Assembly (NCBI GenBank): GCA_013265495.1
Contig: MU057744.1
Location: forward strand, 1,997,370 to 2,061,369
From: Vicugna vicugna
Lineage: Eukaryota
Length of the DNA stretch: 64,000 nucleotides
Direction: 5' to 3'
Part shown: positions 7,184 through 51,627 of the stretch, piece after piece
Numbering within the stretch: position 1 is the first letter of the stretch
Layout: the number at the start of each line of letters is the position of its first letter
Position numbers and translations under genes: made by a program
Notes under the pieces: model-generated
Told to the model about the DNA's origin: nothing
The model's database searches: none
What the model saw: the letters and a program-made list of their open reading frames with translations, nothing else

Positions 7184-7603
<420 letters not shown>

Positions 7604-22399: not shown

Positions 22400-23700
22400 A
22401 GTGCGGATTTCGAGAAGGAAGTTGACCGCGTTTGCAAGCACACGGGCGGACCGGTTGCCTGCGGACCCGGCCCAGGGCGTTGCTCTCCCCGCCGCCCTCT
22501 CCCTCCCGTCTCTCTGTTACTGTCCGGCTCAGCCTGAACGTTCGCAGTGTCTTCGGTTCCGGAACGGCCAAGGTTCAACGTCTCAGCCACCGTTGGAGCA
22601 GGAGTGTCAGATCACGGCTGTCTGTTCTTACCTGTAACCACTTTTGTTGAGTTGCGGCCAAACATGCCGCAGCGCCCTGCACGCCCGCGTGCCTCTGGCC
22701 TGCCTTCCTCGCGACCTGCCGCAGGCGGCCTCTGGAGACACTTGGCGGGCGACCTTTGTTTCCGACGCCGGCGTCTGTCTGCCCGTCTCTCCGCGCGGCA
22801 GCTCCTGCCCCTGCTTCCCGCCCCGTGGGGGCGTGGCCCGCGGGCGGCCCCTCGCGCTCTGTCCTCCCCACCCCCCACCCCCCCCCCCCCNNNNNNNNNN
22901 NNNNNNNNNNNNNNNNNNNNNNNNNNNNNNNNNNNNNNNNNNNNNNNNNNNNNNNNNNNNNNNNNNNNNNNNNNNNNNNNNNNNNNNNNNNNNNNNNNNN
23001 NNNNNNNNNNNNNNNNNNNNNNNNNNNNNNNNNNNNNNNNNNNNNNNNNNNNNNNNNNNNNNNNNNNNNNNNNNNNNNNNNNNNNNNNNNNNNNNNNNNN
23101 NNNNNNNNNNNNNNNNNNNNNNNNNNNNNNNNNNNNNNNNNNNNNNNNNNNNNNNNNNNNNNNNNNNNNNNNNNNNNNNNNNNNNNGCCGTCCCGGGACA
23201 GCGCGCTCCGCGGACGCCTGCTGCCGTGGCCGCGGCCCCGCCGGTGCTGCGCGTGGCGCCCGGGGTCCGGCTCGGCCCAAAGCCCGCCGTCCTGGGTTGG
23301 AAAAGGCAGAGACGGACACACAGGCCCGTCCTCCTCCGGCGGCTGCGACGCACTTGGGCGTTTCCGTGGCGGTGGTGAAGGCGTCAGAGCCTCTCCCGGC
23401 GGACAGGCTGCCCTGCCGTCGCAGTGCGCAGCTTCCCCTCGAGAGCAGCCGCAGGTGCTGACCAGATGGTCCCGCTGGTTCTTTTTTGGCCGGAAAATAA
23501 GACTAAGGGCGGGAGAGGCAAGCAAGGCCCGGGCGCAGCCCCTTGTCCCCTCGTTTCCCTGGAGCTGCTGGCGCGCGGCTCAGGCTCGGGCCGCGCGGTG
23601 AGGTCGCCCTGGCACACCCGACGGGGGGGCCCGCTTGCACGGCGCTGGTCTCACAGCCTCGAGTCTGCCCGCGGCCTTCCGACAGGGACGAATTAGCCCC
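22400..23700. other. Intergenic CpG island
   Basis: Very high GC and dense CpG on both sides of the gap; no exon recognised. Confidence 0.7.
22891..23186. other. Assembly gap (296 N)
   Basis: Run of N preceded by a poly-C tract, inside GC-rich sequence. Confidence 1.
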
Positions 23701-31972: not shown

Positions 31973-32542
31973 TGTTGCAGGAAAGTGTGATACAGCTCGG
32001 TGTTACAGCTCAGTTGTGACAGCAGCCTGGATCTGGGCGAGAGACCAAGCAGCACTCAGATGGTTGGAGAACTCAGGTTTATTACACCATCGAGCCCAGA
32101 GGAGTTAACAGTCCAAGCTCTGGACCCCGTCTGTAGGTTTACACAGGCCTTTATAGGCTGCTAGTTTACACTTTGCAACATCATATGCAAATAAGTATAA
32201 CAAAAGTTGACTAATTAGGAACAAGCTTTGTAGAAATGGACCAATCAGGAGGGAGAGAAACAACCAATCAAAAGTGAAGGAAATGGGCCAGTCAGGAGTG
32301 AGAGAAATAACCAATTAGGAGTGAGCTCCATGCAAATGAAGTACTACAAATGGGCCAATCAGGAGTGAGCTCAGGGAAGCAACAGAATTTCAGGGGTAAG
32401 TTCCACTTTCCTAGAAGTTAGCCGTTTCAGAGGCAAAAAGTGAGGTAGAGCCACTGGGCCAGGGAACCGGACGGTGCTGGCAGGAGAACAGTGGCCCTGT
32501 CTGGGGGTCCTGCCGGTCTTTTTTACGGGGCTTCCCGCCTCA
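31973..32542 (-). mobile_element. Solo ERV1-type LTR, intact
   Basis: TG...CA termini, 4-bp TSD aaat (31969-31972 and 32543-32546). On the - strand the order is CCAAT array, TATAAA (32155-32150), AATAAA (32083-32078). Confidence 0.8.
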
Positions 32543-38003: not shown

Positions 38004-38119
38004 TCATCTCCGCTTCCTGATGGCCAAGCAGGACGCGGACAAGGCCCCTAAGGCGGCTCCGACGATCACGGTTCCAGAGAGGCCGGCCACCCACAGCGCG
38101 CGGGCGTCCACCGGAGACC
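38004..38119 (-). CDS. ZP4: ZP4 exon 12 (transmembrane segment, basic tail, stop)
   Basis: cgcag|GG acceptor. (R)SPVDARALWVAGLSGTVIVGAALGALSASCLAIRKRR*, TGA at 38006-38004. Confidence 0.93.
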
Positions 38120-38328
38120 CTGCGGGGAAGGCGGGCTAGTGCGGGTGAAGCCAGGTGCCTCCGGGCCGGGTGGAGGCTGCCCGTCGTGAGCTATTGGGGA
38201 GAGAGCTGGACAGTCCCTTTGAGGTTCCCGCCGACCAGATCAGCAAGGGGTAAGCCAGGGTGAGGAAGCAGCTGCGGCTTGGCCAGTGGCTCAGGTTCAG
38301 GACCGGAGGTGGGTCCCCTTCCACTCAC

Positions 38329-38445
38329 TTGAGTATTTCCTGAGCTCCTCTGCAGGGTCCCGAGTAGCCTGGAGCAGGATCATGGGGCCCTCGCTGGAAA
38401 CGCGGGCCGTGCTGTTCTGAAGGGGGCCCTCCGAGCGCCTTCTCC
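38329..38445 (-). CDS. ZP4: ZP4 exon 11 (furin site, external hydrophobic patch)
   Basis: aacag|GG to A|gtgag, 117 nt. (R)RRRSEGPLQNSTARVSSEGPMILLQATRDPAEELRKYS; polybasic furin site plus the VSSxGPMILL patch. Confidence 0.93.
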
Positions 38446-39371
38446 CTGTTGGAGAGACGGGGCGGGGATCCGGTAGAAGCCGTGCGCGTGCTGGGCGTGG
38501 TCAGGAACGCGTCCGAAGGGGGCCCGGTCCCCGGTGCGCGTGGCTCCGCTCCTGCCTCAGCGCCTCATACAAACGCGCCGCTCAGGGGAGCGCCCTTGCC
38601 TCGGGTTCACCAGAGAAGCTGGACTGTCCCCAGCGGTCACCCCTCCTGACGGAGGTGGGGGCACAGCGGCACTTGATCCTGAGGCCCCGCCCGCGACGCG
38701 AGGGAGACCGGGAGGGCGGGGACAGCCGCGCCCCCGCCGTTTCTAGTGCCGGCTGTCGCGCCTCGCAGCGCTCCCAGTGCGCGTCTCTTAGACTGGACGG
38801 GAGGGCCGCACGAGAAACAGGCGTGGCTCGGAGAGGACCACGTGTCACGTGCCTGTGTGTCACTGGAGTAGCAAGCATGTAACGACAGTTATGAGAAATA
38901 CTATGTTTTTCTTTTTTTTTTTTTTTTTTTAAGGGGCTGGGTAGGTGTTAGTGGATCTGGCGGAAGTGCACACGCTGGGCGCACCGGCCCGGACCAGCGA
39001 GAGCGCACGCTCGGGCTGCAGCCGTGCTCCACCTGCAGGCGCGGCCAGACCTGCCTTCCAGCAGACTTGAAGTCTGTTTGTGTCTGGCTAGACCAGAAGT
39101 GTTTCACCAGACTGAGCCACGGACAGGCCACGAACCAGTCTGCCTCCTGCCTCAGGTCAGGATTCACATGGAAGGAAGCTAAGGCTGAGAGCTAAGAATT
39201 TAGAGCCTACACTTAGAAGGCCTGGGAGTCTCCGCATTGTCAGTGCTTTAAAGGGGCCCCGTTAGTAAGTCGAGCCTTCCGTTTGATTCATTTGCCCACG
39301 GGCTGCAGGCTAGCCCTGGGCCTCCCCTCCACACAGACCTGTCCTCCAGTGTAGACGGCCTGGGTACTCAC

Positions 39372-39450
39372 GCCTGGCAGCGGGACAGGTTACCCGGCAG
39401 GATGCCGCCCCAGTGGGCTGGCAGACGGAGGCGCTGCAGTGCAGGTACAC
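39372..39450 (-). CDS. ZP4: ZP4 exon 10
   Basis: cccag|GTG to C|gtgag, 79 nt. VYLHCSASVCQPTGAASCRVTCPAAR. Confidence 0.95.
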
Positions 39451-39723
39451 CTGGGGGAACAGAACTGGAGTTGCGGTGTGGCCCCGCCCCAGAGGGAGAG
39501 GCTCCAAACCTGCTTCATCTCCCACAGGAAGAAGCTGAGGAAGTTACCGGAAGACTGATGAATGAAACTGATCTCACAGAGGCCCCGGGACACTAGGGCT
39601 AGTTGACAAGCGCCACTCGCGCCACTGGCATCGAGCGCCGCTCGGAGCAGCACCCACAGCCCAGCTCTGCGGGGGCACCCTGGCCGAGGGGGCAGTGGGG
39701 GAACAGTGGAGCTGGGGGCGGGG

Positions 39724-39871
39724 GGGGGGGATGAGCGCCTGCTTCGACGCCGAGTCCACAAAACTGAAGGTGGAGATGCTGAAACGCTGGTGGTGGGAGG
39801 GGAACGGCAGGCCCGGGGCCTCCCGCACGGGGACCAGTCTGGTCCGGTAGTTGTCTCCCGTGTAGGGGCAT
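39724..39871 (-). CDS. ZP4: ZP4 exon 9; 3' end and splice donor missing in this sequence (left boundary is the expected position)
   Basis: ctcag|A acceptor. (G)CPYTGDNYRTRLVPVREAPGLPFPSHHQRFSISTFSFVDSASKQAL; homology stops near 39732 and is followed by a C-run with no GT donor. Confidence 0.8.
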
Positions 39872-39941
39872 CTGAGCAAAGACACCGGCCGTCAGGGGGG
39901 CTTCCTGGAGGGGCCGCGAGCGGGCGCAGGGCGGCACTTAC

Positions 39942-40131
39942 CCCTTCACCAGCAGGGGCCACTGGGGCTGGAGCAGGGGGCTCGCGCCGGGGGTGGCCCA
40001 GCAATGCTGCAGGCGCAGCCCGAGGGAGGGGTCCGCCCTGCCGCGGAGCGAGACCTCCACGTGTATGGGGTCCCGGAGCAGCTTCACCACCGGGTAGTCA
40101 CCAGCTGCGTAGTAGGAGCCGTAGTGCGAGT
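39942..40131 (-). CDS. ZP4: ZP4 exon 8 (ZP-C domain)
   Basis: gcag|AC to GG|gtaag, 190 nt. (D)SHYGSYYAAGDYPVVKLLRDPIHVEVSLRGRADPSLGLRLQHCWATPGASPLLQPQWPLLVK(G). Confidence 0.96.
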
Positions 40132-40280
40132 CTGCAGGGGCCACGACACGGGGGAGGCTGGGCACCGGGCCGCCTGGGGCGGACCGTCGCCCCGTGAACA
40201 CCTCGGGCAAGCTTCCCGTTACAGAGGGGCGTCTTCCTGCCCCGAAAAGTGACAGGACTTCCCCTCCCAGGGGGCCTCAC

Positions 40281-40411
40281 CTTTGGCGATCCGAAGTTCC
40301 ATAGTGAGGGGTCCGGGATGGGCCTTGGGCAGCGGGGGCGGGAGGGGGAGGACCTGGATGCTCGCCGGGAAAGCGCTGCTGCTCACGGAGTAGCTGCAGC
40401 CGACGCGGAGC
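40281..40411 (-). CDS. ZP4: ZP4 exon 7
   Basis: cccag|G to G|gtgag, 131 nt. (R)LRVGCSYSVSSSAFPASIQVLPLPPPLPKAHPGPLTMELRIAK. Confidence 0.95.
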
Positions 40412-40953
40412 CTGGGGGGGAAAACAGGACACTGACCGGCGAGCTCGTGGGGCGGGGGGCACCTCTCTACAAGAGCTTGTGTGGGGGGCACCTCTCTGCA
40501 GGGGTGAGGGGCTGCTGCGGCTGCGCGCTGGGCGAGTTAGAGCCAGGCTGGGGGTGGTTCCGGCCTCGTGAGAGCCGTGTTCATGGACCTGGTCTGCAGA
40601 CTGGACTTGCCAGCACTCGGGAGCTGGGCAGAGCCGCAGAGGCACGAGACATGGTGCGGGGGAGGGGGAGGCACCGACAGGAAGGTGCCGCAGGCACTGG
40701 GATCCAGAGGAGGCTGGAGAGGAGTGGCGGGGAGGTCGGGGGAGAGGACAGAACAGTGTGGAGGCAGGAGAAGTCTGAGGTCCTCTGAAGACACTGGAGG
40801 GACAGTCTAGGGGACAGTGGGTGAAGGACTGAGGACGTCGGACCAGATGGGGCTGGAGAAGAAGAAGCTGCCTGGTGCAGGGCCCTGAGGTTATGCTCAG
40901 GATGTTACCTTGAAGCTACGGGAAACCACATAAGGAGCTCTCTGTGCTAAGAG

Positions 40954-41104
40954 TTTTTTTTTTTTTTTAATTAAGTTTACTTTTATCATTTGAGGGGATA
41001 ATTAGGTTTTTGTTTAGTTTTTCCTCTCAGCGAGGGACTGGGGATGGAACCCAGGCCCTCGTGCGTGCTGAGCACACGCTCTGCCACCGAGCTGTCCCTC
41101 CCCC
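40954..41104 (-). mobile_element. tRNA-derived SINE in ZP4 intron 6
   Basis: Poly-T then gactggggatggaacccaggccctcgtgcgtgctgagcacacgctctgccaccgagctgtccctccccc. Confidence 0.85.
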
Positions 41105-41398
41105 TGGTCTAGGGTTTTAAAGGGATCCTTTTTGCTGCAGCTTAGACAGTGGAGGCCAAAATGAGAAACAGGAGAGCCGGTCAGATGAACCAGAGGTCCA
41201 GGCGAGTCTGAGGCTGGGATCAAGTCGGTGTCAGGGCTACAGATCCAATGATGGTCAGCGAGACCGGACAGCCAAGGCCGCAGACAGTCTCCCGCACGAG
41301 GCGGCATTTTCGTGGGCTCGCCCTAGAGCTCCCGCTTCGTGGGGGAAGGGAAGTCAGGCGTCCTGGCCAAGCAGGGTCGGGTTAACCGAGACCTTTAC

Positions 41399-41496
41399 CT
41401 GAAGACACTGTCTCGGGTGATAGAACCCTGGCTCCAAGTTTGCACATCCCTGGCGGCCACCAGCTCGTTCTCATACACCGCATGGTTTCTGGTAAC
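41399..41496 (-). CDS. ZP4: ZP4 exon 6
   Basis: gcag|GTT to AG|gtaaag, 98 nt. VTRNHAVYENELVAARDVQTWSQGSITRDSVF(R). Confidence 0.95.
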
Positions 41497-42022
41497 CTGC
41501 AGGGGCAGGTGAGGGCGGCCGTCACCCCGCAGCCTGGTGCTGCCGCCGCCTCTGGAGCTCGCTCTGGCCCAGCCTCACCCGGCCACCCAGATGCTCTCTG
41601 ATGCTGCACAAATGCTGCAGCGTGAATGGAGCCACAGGTAGGGCCTCCCCTAACCTGGGAAGTGGACACTGCACCTTGCTTTCAGGACAGAGGGACGGCA
41701 AGAGGCTCCGAGTGCTCAGATGAGGCGGCCAGAGACACCAGCCACCTCCAAGGACCTCCCTGCTTGTGTCCCAGGGGGGCAGCAGGGACATGTTACTTGC
41801 TCTGCAGCCCGGTCAGAGGCCAGCCCCACGCGGGGGCACAGGCGTGATGGCCTGGCTGCGGGCCCAGAGAGGGAGGCCACCCCTTCCTCTGGGATGAGGA
41901 GACCGTCTGACCTACCCAGCCGCGGTCCGTGTGCCCTGCAGGGCTGAGATCCCCGACCTCCCCCGGTCCCGGGCATCCCTGCCCGACGTTGTCAGACCAG
42001 GGCCCGCAGCCAGCCCACTCAC

Positions 42023-42210
42023 TTGCTTGGTGGTGCCACAGGCAGTGACGGGGAACTGGAACAGGACAAAGGTGTGCGTCACCATCACGGGTTCACACTC
42101 GCTGTCATTCGTGAAGGCCAAGTGCACAGAATTCAAGAGCAGCGGGGGTGAGGTCACGTTCCGAGACACGGCGATGGAGAAGTGGCTGTCCTGGGTACAG
42201 CGTGAGGTCA
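42023..42210 (-). CDS. ZP4: ZP4 exon 5 (ZP-N domain)
   Basis: ttcag|TG to CAA|gtgag, 188 nt. (V)TSRCTQDSHFSIAVSRNVTSPPLLLNSVHLAFTNDSECEPVMVTHTFVLFQFPVTACGTTKQ. Confidence 0.96.
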
Positions 42211-42917
42211 CTGAAACGCCAGAGCAGTGGTGCTAAAGGCAGGTGGCCTCCCGTTACGGGGCTGGCCAGACAAGGCCTAACGGTTAGGCCAGTGACTTCT
42301 GACTCGCCCCAGCCTCCTAGAGAAGCTGGCAGCCCTGCTGCTGACCTAGCGACCCGGATGCAGTTCAGCCGCCCAGGCCTCGCCAAGGCTCTGCACGAGC
42401 GCCGGAGTCTGAGTCCTGCGCCCAGCACAGCACGGAGCCTCCCCACAGCCTCCCCTGAGGCCGGGAGGAGCAGCACCTGCCTGCTTCACTCATCAGCCAG
42501 GACTGGAGGGGAGGGTGGCAGCTGCTGTTTAATGAGCATCACTTTACACGAGAAAAACTTGGGAGGGTGATTTGGGACAAACAGGCTTTTGAAATGAAGC
42601 TCTCTAGACAGACTGTCGGCCACCAGAGGGGCTGTTTCTTGGGAACTGGTTAAATTCCTGTTAATTAGCATCTTGCCCATTGACTTGGCTTCTTGGGTTC
42701 ATTGACTGACTTGCTTTGCGTGGGATTCTGGAGTGGATGATGGAAGGCCGTAGAAAGCTCTGTCTCTCGGGGCCCAGTGTACCAGGATGCACGCTTGTAC
42801 CTCAGCCTCTGGTCGCCTTCAGTGTCTGCCTTCTGCGGGGTGCAGACCACCCTCCTTTGGGTGAGAGCAGGTAACGGGCACTTGTCCTCAGCTGATCTCA
42901 AACACGCGGGGGCTCAC

Positions 42918-43070
42918 CTGTGTTTCCGTAGTAACAGGGATTTTCCTCCTCAGCGTCGTAGCAGCATCCCAGCCGCTCGCAGTCTCCTCGGGTGCTGGGC
43001 GAGGGAGTGCACGGCAGCCTGTCCCACGCTGGGACGGAGTCACAGACACCAGCGTTGGGGACGTCTCGGG
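42918..43070 (-). CDS. ZP4: ZP4 exon 4 (trefoil/P domain)
   Basis: ccag|CC to G|gtgag, 153 nt. (A)RDVPNAGVCDSVPAWDRLPCTPSPSTRGDCERLGCCYDAEEENPCYYGNT, with the six trefoil cysteines typical of ZP1/ZP4. Confidence 0.96.
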
Positions 43071-43864
43071 CTGGATTTGGAAGGGAGAGTAACTCGAGCC
43101 AGGTAACAAGTCTGGCTTTTAAAGAGACCACTTTGTTACAAAGCATTAACTCTGAATTCCCACACGTATCCAGTGCCTGGGGTCGACACGCACTAGAGGG
43201 CAAGTGTCCACCAGAAAAGTCAGCGTTCGTTAAGTCACCTTATGAGGGTCCCCTGAACTGAGTCGTTCTGAAGAAGGAAATACAAACAAGACTGGTAGAA
43301 GTGAGAAGCAATGAGGCCCTTTCCTCCTTTACTCAAAGAATCCTCCTCCTGGGCTTGGCGCGACCCCTCTTGGCGCCCGTGAGTGGCGTGGGCGCCACTT
43401 CGCGATGCCCTGTGTTCTGGTTCTGCAGCTGGGGCGGGGTTGGGGGGGGCAGGGTCGGCGGTTCGTCAGCCTCACCCTCGGGCCGGCGGCTCCGGGGGCG
43501 GGGCCAGGTCCGCGGGGACACCCGGCATCTGATTCCCGCTAATGCCCCGGTTAAGGGGTCAAGCAGCCCCAGCTGCAGGGCCTGAGCCCCGGCCTCGGAG
43601 CCCGGTCTGCTTCTCCCGGGCATTTGTCTCCGGGCGGTGTCAGCCTCCTCCCCCACCTTGGAGGGCAGCTCCGGTCCTGGGGGCAGAGCCGGGAGGGGCG
43701 CGCGGTCGGCCCCCCCGCGGGCGGGGGCGCGGGTCAGGCTCGCAGCCGGGTGTCTCGGGTGCCCCCCCGGGGAGGCGAGGGGCGGACGACGGCCCCCTCG
43801 GGCGCCGGCGTCACTGCAGGGCCGGAGAGGGCATCCTCCGGGCAGGGGCCTCCGCCTGCCTTAC

Positions 43865-43967
43865 CCGGGAGAGCCACAGGGCACTTGAACAGCTGTGTCT
43901 TGGTCACCACCCTGCGCCCGGCCGCATCCGCTTCTTCCACTCCAACCGGCATGACGTAGTGCGTGTC
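43865..43967 (-). CDS. ZP4: ZP4 exon 3
   Basis: cag|GAC to G|gtaag, 103 nt. DTHYVMPVGVEEADAAGRRVVTKTQLFKCPVALP. Confidence 0.95.
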
Positions 43968-44035
43968 CTGGAGAGACAGGCCCGGGTCAGCCGGCCGGGG
44001 CTCGGGCCCGCGCCCCCCGCGGGCCGGGGACTCAC

Positions 44036-44157
44036 CCACTGGGTGACGTAGCAGCCGCCGTAGGCCGCCTCCACCAGCACGGAGCTGCCGGGGCCCGCGC
44101 CCACGCGGGTGCCGCAGTCAGAGTCATTCCGCAGCCTGTGCAGCAGCCCGCGCTGGT
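44036..44157 (-). CDS. ZP4: ZP4 exon 2
   Basis: cag|AC to TGG|gtgag, 122 nt. (D)QRGLLHRLRNDSDCGTRVGAGPGSSVLVEAAYGGCYVTQW. Confidence 0.95.
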
Positions 44158-44424
44158 CTGCGGTTGGGAGCGGGAAAGAACGAAGGTCAGACTCCGCGGT
44201 CCCCAGGCTGCCCCTCAGGACGGCCAGCTTTGCCTCGGCGCCGGGGTCAGCGCCAGGTAAGGGCAGGAAAGGAGGGGAATCGGGTTCGGAAGCCAAGCTG
44301 CGTCTCGGAAGGTTCCTTCTAGGGAGAGAGGCTGCAGGGTTCGGCAGAGGTTCCCGGGGGAGGGCAGCTGGCAGGCCGTTTCAGGCGGCCGGGAGCCAGG
44401 CCAGGGCTGGCTACAGTCGCTTAC

Positions 44425-44599
44425 CCCAAGCTACCAGGGCGGGAGGAGCGGCCGTCTCCAGGCTCAGGTTCCCTGTGAACAGGAAGCCCTCGGGCCCACA
44501 GTGGGGAGCACCAGGGTCACCGGGCCCCCTGGGCTCGGGCTGGCCGCTCAGAGCCAGGGACAGCGGGAGGCAGAGCCAGACGGACTGCAGCCACCGCAT
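44425..44599 (-). CDS. ZP4: ZP4 exon 1 (signal peptide, start of ZP-N1)
   Basis: ATG at 44599; MRWLQSVWLCLPLSLALSGQPEPRGPGDPGAPHCGPEGFLFTGNLSLETAAPPALVAW; donor G|gtaag; 175 nt. Confidence 0.92.
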
Positions 44600-49630: not shown

Positions 49631-51493
49631 GCGGAGGGCCATTTCCTCTGTGGTGTCAGGAAGAAAGAGACACGTTTCTCCTCCGAAAGCGGGCAGACTG
49701 AGAGTGACAGAGTGGAGGTCTGGGGAATTCCACCCTTGTGACGCAGGGGGTGAGGCTGTCCGTCCGCCCAGAGTAGGAAGCACTGGGCGGTGCCGGCTCC
49801 TAAGCCAATTCCACCGGTGTTCGCCACGAGCGTCCCATCGGAGGCGGAACCAGAGCCCACACTGAGCTGAAGCTCTTTTGTTGGACGACTGGATGATTAG
49901 AACAGAGGCAGCACAAAGGGCTTCCTTCAAAAACCTTTCTGACCCCAATAGATACCATCTGTTTTCTCGCTTCCAGTATTTTTTCAGCCTGTAATGATCC
50001 ATTTCTGTAAACAATACATCTAATACAGAAAAAAAGCTAGAATTCCTCTCGAGTGTACTTAATTTTATCACAGAGCTAAAAAATTAGACTTGAAAAGTCA
50101 CTTCCATTATGTAACGTTATGACAGTCTAAAAAAATGCCTGCACGTCCTTCGTTTTTATGCCTAAAGATGATGAGCAGGTATTATCAAAAATAAAAACTC
50201 TTTTCTGAAACCACTGAATTGGAGTTAACGTTCCAGTGGCGTACGTGATGTGAAAAGTAGGAAGCTCGATGTTAAAGAACAAAATTTAACCCATCTTGAG
50301 TTTTCCCTTAAAATCATGTCTCTCTTTTAAGAGTACAAAGAAAAGTCATTATCAATACTAACATTTGAGGGAACAGCAAAAGTTGAATCTTCCTTGAATA
50401 AGAATAAAGTGTCTCAGAGACAATTTTTCTTGGACTCTGAATTAAATAAAGGAGGAATTATGTTAGAATGCTTTTTTCTCCTCATTTAAAAATTTGCCAT
50501 TCATGCAGAATATATATACATGCATATATATAACGTTTAAAGGTCCTGGTGCCTACCCGTCTTCTGCAAATGCTCTAAAGTCAAATTGGGGACTGAACAT
50601 TTCTTTTGTCAACCTTGTCCAAACTCGTCTCAATACAGAATCACTTTTTGGCCAATCAAACAATTCCATAAAGACTTGTTCAGCTAGTTTGTTGAGATCT
50701 GCGAGCCAATTATTTTTTCCCCTCTGAACTTCTGATGTCTTTTTTCAGAGGCTTTTATTCAAGGCCCTTGGCCATACGTGTACGTGAACTTGTGTGAACC
50801 GTGCCACTGCAGGCTCCTGTATGGAGGAGGAGCAGGTCTGCCTCTTGCAATCTGGACCACATCAAACCAGGTGACGGTGTTAGAAAGATGCTGAAAATGA
50901 GTGATACCAACTTAAGCACGCAGGACCCTGTCCGAACGCAGGCCTTTCAGCTGCCTATGGGCAGTAAGATTCATCAGGTGAGTGTTCATTGAGGACACCC
51001 TCAATTCTGGTCCTGTGCTAGGGGCTAGGGAGAAGAAGACGGACACAGATCTTGCCTTTAAAAAGCTGGAATAAGGAATAGATGGCTGTAAGCACAGACA
51101 GCTCATCAAATCCTGGTCACTTGTGAAGACGCTCAGGGAAAATGACGTTAACTCAATCATGCAGTGAGAGAGACTCAGGAAATCCAGTCCTCTGGGCCTC
51201 CGCGAGGACGTGCGGACAGTTCCTCTGCCTCTCGCGCCAGAAGCTGCCCAGTTCTCTCCCGCACCTTTGGGGTTTCCCTCAGCTCCGGCCTGGATGAGGT
51301 CCTGGTTCCGTATGTGCCTCTCCCACCAGCCCCCACACAACTCTGCCTTCCTTCCTCAATCACATTTCACCAGCCGTGAGCTATTTCTACTTCATCTTTT
51401 TCGACTTCGGAGCAGCAGTCAAAGTTTCCGACTCCAAGACACCTGAGCATGAAGCCTACACCCGTGCATGTTTTATCTGTAGGATATGCAGTG

Positions 51494-51627
51494 CACTGTC
51501 ACAGGAGACACACAGGCAGCAGTGGGCACTGCCACAGGAGACGCACAGGCGACAGTGGGCACTGCCACAGGAGACGCACAGGCGACAGTGGGCACTGCCA
51601 CAGGAGACGCACAGGTAATAGTGGGCA
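51494..51627. repeat. Minisatellite, 4 x 33 bp
   Basis: Unit cactgccacaggagacgcacaggcgacagtggg; central copies identical, outer copies diverged. Confidence 0.95.

Follow-up and report, generated by a model that had tools for sequence, protein, structure and literature searches.

A missing exon 9 splice donor in camelid ZP4 is best explained as a local consensus error

ZP genes have been lost in some lineages. In its passages on such losses, a review (PMC8005149) describes ZP4 as lost in the subgenus Mus and in Monodelphis and ZP1 as lost several times, and the subgenus Mus is the only loss of ZP4 among placental mammals that is counted there. The consequences of losing ZP4 can be seen in ZP4-null rabbits, for which the summary findings of PMC6805156 give a thin, leaky zona and impaired fertility. 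Losses of another kind exist only in assemblies: false gene loss through splice-junction disruptions and false indels in GC-rich regions is a documented class, as the pertinent sections of PMC9516821 set out. A related error is described in parts of PMC8002175, where bases read after a homopolymer in Illumina data take the identity of the preceding base.

Here, we analyzed a window of 64,000 nucleotides of camelid DNA, the whole stretch from which the lines above are taken, in which exon 9 of ZP4 ends without a splice donor. An earlier note, made from the letters of the window, had offered incipient pseudogenisation, an altered ZP-C loop or an assembly artefact as explanations. Had the lesion been real, the Zp4 pseudogene of the subgenus Mus would have been the model, as it concerns the same gene (PMC8005149, same passages). 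That loss, however, marks a whole subgenus, whereas the present lesion is found in one assembly and the reading frame is otherwise intact. A literature search on ZP4 in camelids, which included the ZP4 passages of PMC7381958, returned no report of camelid ZP4 loss.

The ZP4 gene and the edge of exon 9

The ZP4 gene lies on the minus strand at 38004..44599, and its 12 coding exons were placed by their exon joins and by the match to alpaca ZP4. Exons 1 to 4 are at 44599-44425, 44157-44036, 43967-43865 and 43070-42918; exons 5 to 8 at 42210-42023, 41496-41399, 40411-40281 and 40131-39942; and exons 9 to 12 at 39871-39732, 39450-39372, 38445-38329 and 38119-38004. The coding sequence is GC-rich (66% GC, 82% at third codon positions). 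The exon 9 read-through, used as a protein query, matched 52 proteins, headed by the ZP4 of alpaca, Bactrian camel and wild camel at 86-90%, with matches to ZP1 ranking far lower, and the gene is thus ZP4 and not ZP1. Alignment to alpaca ZP4 (XP_072827148.1, P0002, 539 aa) is gap-free once three X are placed at the break. Outside the junction, 534/536 residues are identical and only two differ: residue 309 is E in alpaca and K in the window, and residue 442 is R in alpaca alone and S in the window. The two proteins have the same length once K-G-P is counted; the alpaca residues K434-G435-P436 and the donor are what the window lacks. These matches support a camelid, alpaca-like source. Bactrian camel ZP4 differs from that of the window at 25 other places, and all 22 cysteines are kept in the window, alpaca, Bactrian camel and dromedary. 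The Pfam families PF22821, PF00088, PF23344 and PF00100 scored above cut-off on the alpaca protein, which gives the domain order of a ZP4 (Ig-like ZP-N1, trefoil, ZP-N, ZP-C) for a protein to which the window is identical at the 534 of 536 residues given above.

On the human map, ZP4 stands tail to tail with RYR2. The window holds the 3' end of RYR2: a plus-strand exon within 7184-7603 corresponds to residues 4812-4865 of RyR2, close to its C-terminus, and so the neighbourhood expected of ZP4 from the human synteny is found here. This RYR2 exon was the only feature that Pfam recognized in 60 of the 138 long open frames of the window.

As the earlier note had said, the ten other ZP4 introns have clean GT-AG ends, which can be read from the exon-join table (GT start in 10/11 introns, AG end in 11/11), and no phase-0 donor GT follows the SKQAL of exon 9 in the assembled letters. 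Exon 9 (39732..39871, minus strand) starts at 39871 in phase 2 and has 140 of its normal 148 bases; it reads ...SASKQAL and then continues as I-P-P-P-R-P-Q. Intron 9 (39451..39731, minus strand; 281 bases in the window) starts with ATCCCC instead of GT, has a clean AG acceptor and is followed by an intact exon 10 (39372..39450, minus strand; VYLHCS...). Between 39748 and 39704 there is no GT, and neither of the GTs at these two positions is in phase. A TGA stop at 39572..39574 on the minus strand, the stop that the note had placed at 39574, is reached only if the faulty sequence is read through. Four in-frame GTs occur: the two cryptic donors already named in the note, 39678 (+15 aa) and 39657 (+22 aa), and two others, 39759 (-12 aa) and 39591 (+44 aa). 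The G11 and G5 runs that the note had seen at the lesion are present in the window letters: a C11-G-C5 tract occupies 39714..39730 on the minus strand (G5-C-G11 on the plus strand, with the G11 run at 39720-39730), and its G4Hunter score of 2.72 is the joint third-strongest peak in the window.

Sequencing runs across the site

Four of 24 listed runs were compared with the window over 39200-40500 (1301 bases). Three of these are DNA runs (X1, X7 and X10), which come from three studies under two organism labels and are 3 of the 14 strong DNA matches; the fourth is an RNA run (X15). All four were compared as contigs, which drop rare or second alleles. In X1, X7 and X10, one contig each spans all 1301 bases, and all three DNA runs have the same 11 letters inserted behind 39731. 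At the neighbouring position, X1 has one extra C behind 39730, and X7 and X10 read a C at 39730. An X15 contig that runs across intron 9 carries the same 12 extra bases. Against these four runs, the error site of the window (39730..39732, minus strand) lacks 11 bases between 39732 and 39731 and, at 39730, has one G either absent or read as C.

Of the 11 missing bases, 8 close exon 9 and encode K-G-P, and 3 open the donor. The restored reading on the minus strand is ...L-K-G-P, then the donor CCG/GTATGC, then the C-run. In the DNA runs, exon 9 has 148 bases and intron 9 has 284-285 bases, and only 11-12 bases are missing from the window. Of the artefact that the note had envisaged, the intact K-G-P donor is therefore found in 3/3 DNA runs, whereas the extra intron sequence is not, the difference being 11-12 bases beside a C-tract that was always there. 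Nor does a poly-C tract replace the end of the exon, as the title of the note had it: this tract belongs to the natural beginning of intron 9, where it sets in at about +6 of the true donor, and it is common to camelids. In sum, the note described the assembled window correctly, and all four runs compared show different DNA. The site is intact in 4/4 runs and the lesion is seen in 0/4, counting the three DNA runs and the intron-holding contig of X15; independent data thus span the site with a different and conserved sequence, as expected of a consensus error.

X1 shares the alleles of the window at 39472 and 40103 and the length of its G-run, at all of which X7 and X10 differ. X1 therefore represents the haplotype of the window or a close one and may even be its source, in which case it would not be independent but would bear directly on the error. 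The window differs from all four runs at 40326 and is therefore no copy of X1. Word sharing with 39300-40500 was 0.83-0.95 for the 14 strong DNA runs; none held all words, and the top run has the intact site. The other 11 strong DNA runs, at 0.83-0.89, come closer to the intact pattern of X7 and X10 (expectation 0.87, observed 0.89) than to the 0.92-0.97 predicted for a lesion-bearing pattern, a slight pointer that we do not count as evidence. Runs X16 to X24 had only a small share of these words or none.

Three substitutions, at 39698, 39708 and 40326, are private to the window with respect to 4/4 runs. Those at 39708 and 39698 are, on the minus strand, an A read as C directly after a C. Two of the three window-only substitutions thus fall within 35 bases of the lesion (p ~0.008 if they were scattered, for a stretch chosen after seeing the data). 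A GGT error motif on the plus strand was considered and fits neither 39698 nor 39708, whereas the preceding-base pattern on the minus strand fits. The third substitution, a CpG-type transition in exon 7, gives K309 in the window, where 15/15 aligned ZP4 proteins and 4/4 runs have E; it may be a real private allele or another error.

The earlier note had also pointed out that the N gap of the window abuts a C-run. The gap (22891-23186, 296 bases) directly follows a C13 run (region 22866-23186), and the strongest G4Hunter peak of the window (3.68) ends at the gap, which suggests that the assembly loses sequence at such runs. Elsewhere in the window there are tandem repeats at 51493-51627 (33 bases x 4.1, 93% matches) and at 32240-32325 (23 bases x 3.7, with a CCAAT-like word).

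Splicing and annotated relatives

Run X15 is of Old World camel type: it is ~3% different from the window and has the Bactrian camel residue at 9/9 residue-changing sites. One joint in this run connects 39732 to 39451 across 7 intervening letters and corresponds to the normal K-G-P/V-Y-L junction of exons 9 and 10. This junction is carried by one 57-letter contig from a different species, with 30 + 20 matching side letters, which is below the 31-letter bridging bar. The depth of the junction contig was 15.9, versus 7 for the unspliced contig, both being contig depths and not expression levels. In X15, loose ends coincide with the points where exons 6 and 11 end, and spliced ZP4 RNA is therefore present in this run. 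Joints at the cryptic donors 39678 and 39657 were absent from X15, the sole RNA run compared. By hand count, the true donor has 6/9 matches to the donor consensus and the other ten donors have 6-8; the four in-frame GTs reach only 3-5/9 on this crude count and were rejected as donors.

The only X15 contig over exons 7 to 9 (39732-40414) retains the short, GC-rich introns 7 (149 bases) and 8 (70 bases), although its end is spliced to exon 6, consistent with partial splicing or with the filtering out of spliced records. Across exons 7 to 10 (39372-40411), 8/9 coding differences between X15 and the window are non-synonymous versus 73% expected by site count. This excess is not significant (p 0.26), and relaxed selection was rejected as a reading of it; ZP4 may be evolving fast between New and Old World camelids.

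Annotated camelid proteins give a similar picture of the junction. Among 13 aligned camelid ZP4 proteins, KGP is present in 12/13 and KGP/VYLHC in 10/13, in agreement with the DNA runs. The other three are gene models that go wrong at the same spot. P0058 (dromedary) reads KGP-VCPPPGPQLNW, a read-through translation of the donor and C-run, and both are therefore present in camels. P0004 has intron-like residues added after KGP, and P0063 is without exon 9. All three are faulty at exon 9, intron 9 or exon 10 (39372-39871), which suggests that this GC-rich spot troubles other camelid assemblies or annotations too. More widely, all 40 homologues with the motif have a junction span (TF.F to LHC) of 21 or 22 residues; the remaining 12 of the 52 were left out of this count and comprise one faulty camel model and low-ranked, ZP1-type or hypothetical bird or amphibian proteins. 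An insert of +15 or +22 residues therefore has no parallel there. Alpaca isoform X1 (P0054, P0056) has 11 more residues after exon 10 (the REYPGRLHWRTG region; window 38446-38478), apparently from a later intron 10 donor just before the basic cleavage site.

Consensus error and competing explanations

On the basis of these results, we conclude with a probability of about 95% that the missing exon 9 donor is a local consensus error of the assembly and that ZP4 is ordinary and intact. Gene loss is rejected, as the donor is intact in other sequence data. The case resembles the cases in the relevant part of PMC9516821 in having a small splice-junction indel in a GC-rich gene that is contradicted by other sequence data. 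There, reads were checked against old and new assemblies, with two species from the same individuals; here, the comparison is with contigs of other or unidentified samples.

As to mechanism, reads would fail in passing the C10-11/G/C5 tract of this GC-rich gene, and the consensus would depend on a small number of low-quality, one-sided reads. Twelve bases bordering the run may then have been dropped, and two A's beyond it converted to C. The substitutions at 39698 and 39708 both take the preceding base on the minus strand, like the post-homopolymer errors described in parts of PMC8002175. Those are single substitutions, in contrast to the 12-base loss in the window. We hold this mechanism to be less certain than the error.

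The rival that survives best, which we consider very unlikely, is that the animal sequenced carries a private, probably heterozygous deletion allele. Such an allele, segregating in a New World camelid, would lack 12 bases next to a C-run prone to form G-quadruplexes. By removing K-G-P and the intron 9 donor, it would lead to intron retention or to use of a weak cryptic donor, and hence to loss of function through a null or malformed ZP4. The assembled sequence of the window itself speaks for such an allele, as do the collapse of heterozygous sites in contigs and the window-only K309 at 40326, which has the look of a genuine variant. Deletions are also known to concentrate in G-runs and G4-prone tracts, which would suit a real deletion at this place. 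However, the allele would need four changes in 35 bases (an 11-base gap, a 1-base gap and two A-to-C changes), two of them at sites that are equal in New World and Old World camelid runs, and 0/14 strong DNA runs exceed a word share of 0.95, the top run being intact.

That the camelid species of the window has lost ZP4 as a lineage, or has fixed a Pro-rich loop through use of a cryptic donor, is highly improbable: ZP losses elsewhere (PMC8005149, passages cited above) and the in-frame cryptic GTs lend it some plausibility, but the donor is intact in runs of both organism labels (X1 and X7 refute a loss unless the species of the window is neither organism A nor organism B), alpaca ZP4 is annotated at full length with a normal junction, and the loop has neither a joint at 39678 or 39657 in X15 nor a counterpart in the junction spans. 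A unitary pseudogene would show its lesion in independent individuals or reads, and would show further decay. The lesion is in none of the four runs, and the rest of the frame is free of lesions, as the earlier note had seen: the ten other introns are GT-AG, 22/22 cysteines are kept and two residues differ from alpaca. Both the pseudogenisation and the altered ZP-C loop of that note thus give way to its artefact option, which the intact donor in the DNA runs and the normal junction in X15 bear out, the latter in a short contig of Old World camel type.

With the consensus error put right, the gene would make the usual ZP4 precursor of 539 residues, with Ig-like ZP-N1, trefoil, ZP-N and ZP-C domains, a furin-type basic site and a membrane anchor. 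Lesions beside long G/C runs in this assembly need a check against reads. If a natural ZP4 null allele did exist, it would be one candidate explanation for subfertility in female camelids. For this camelid, ZP4 does not belong in a list of lost or altered genes.
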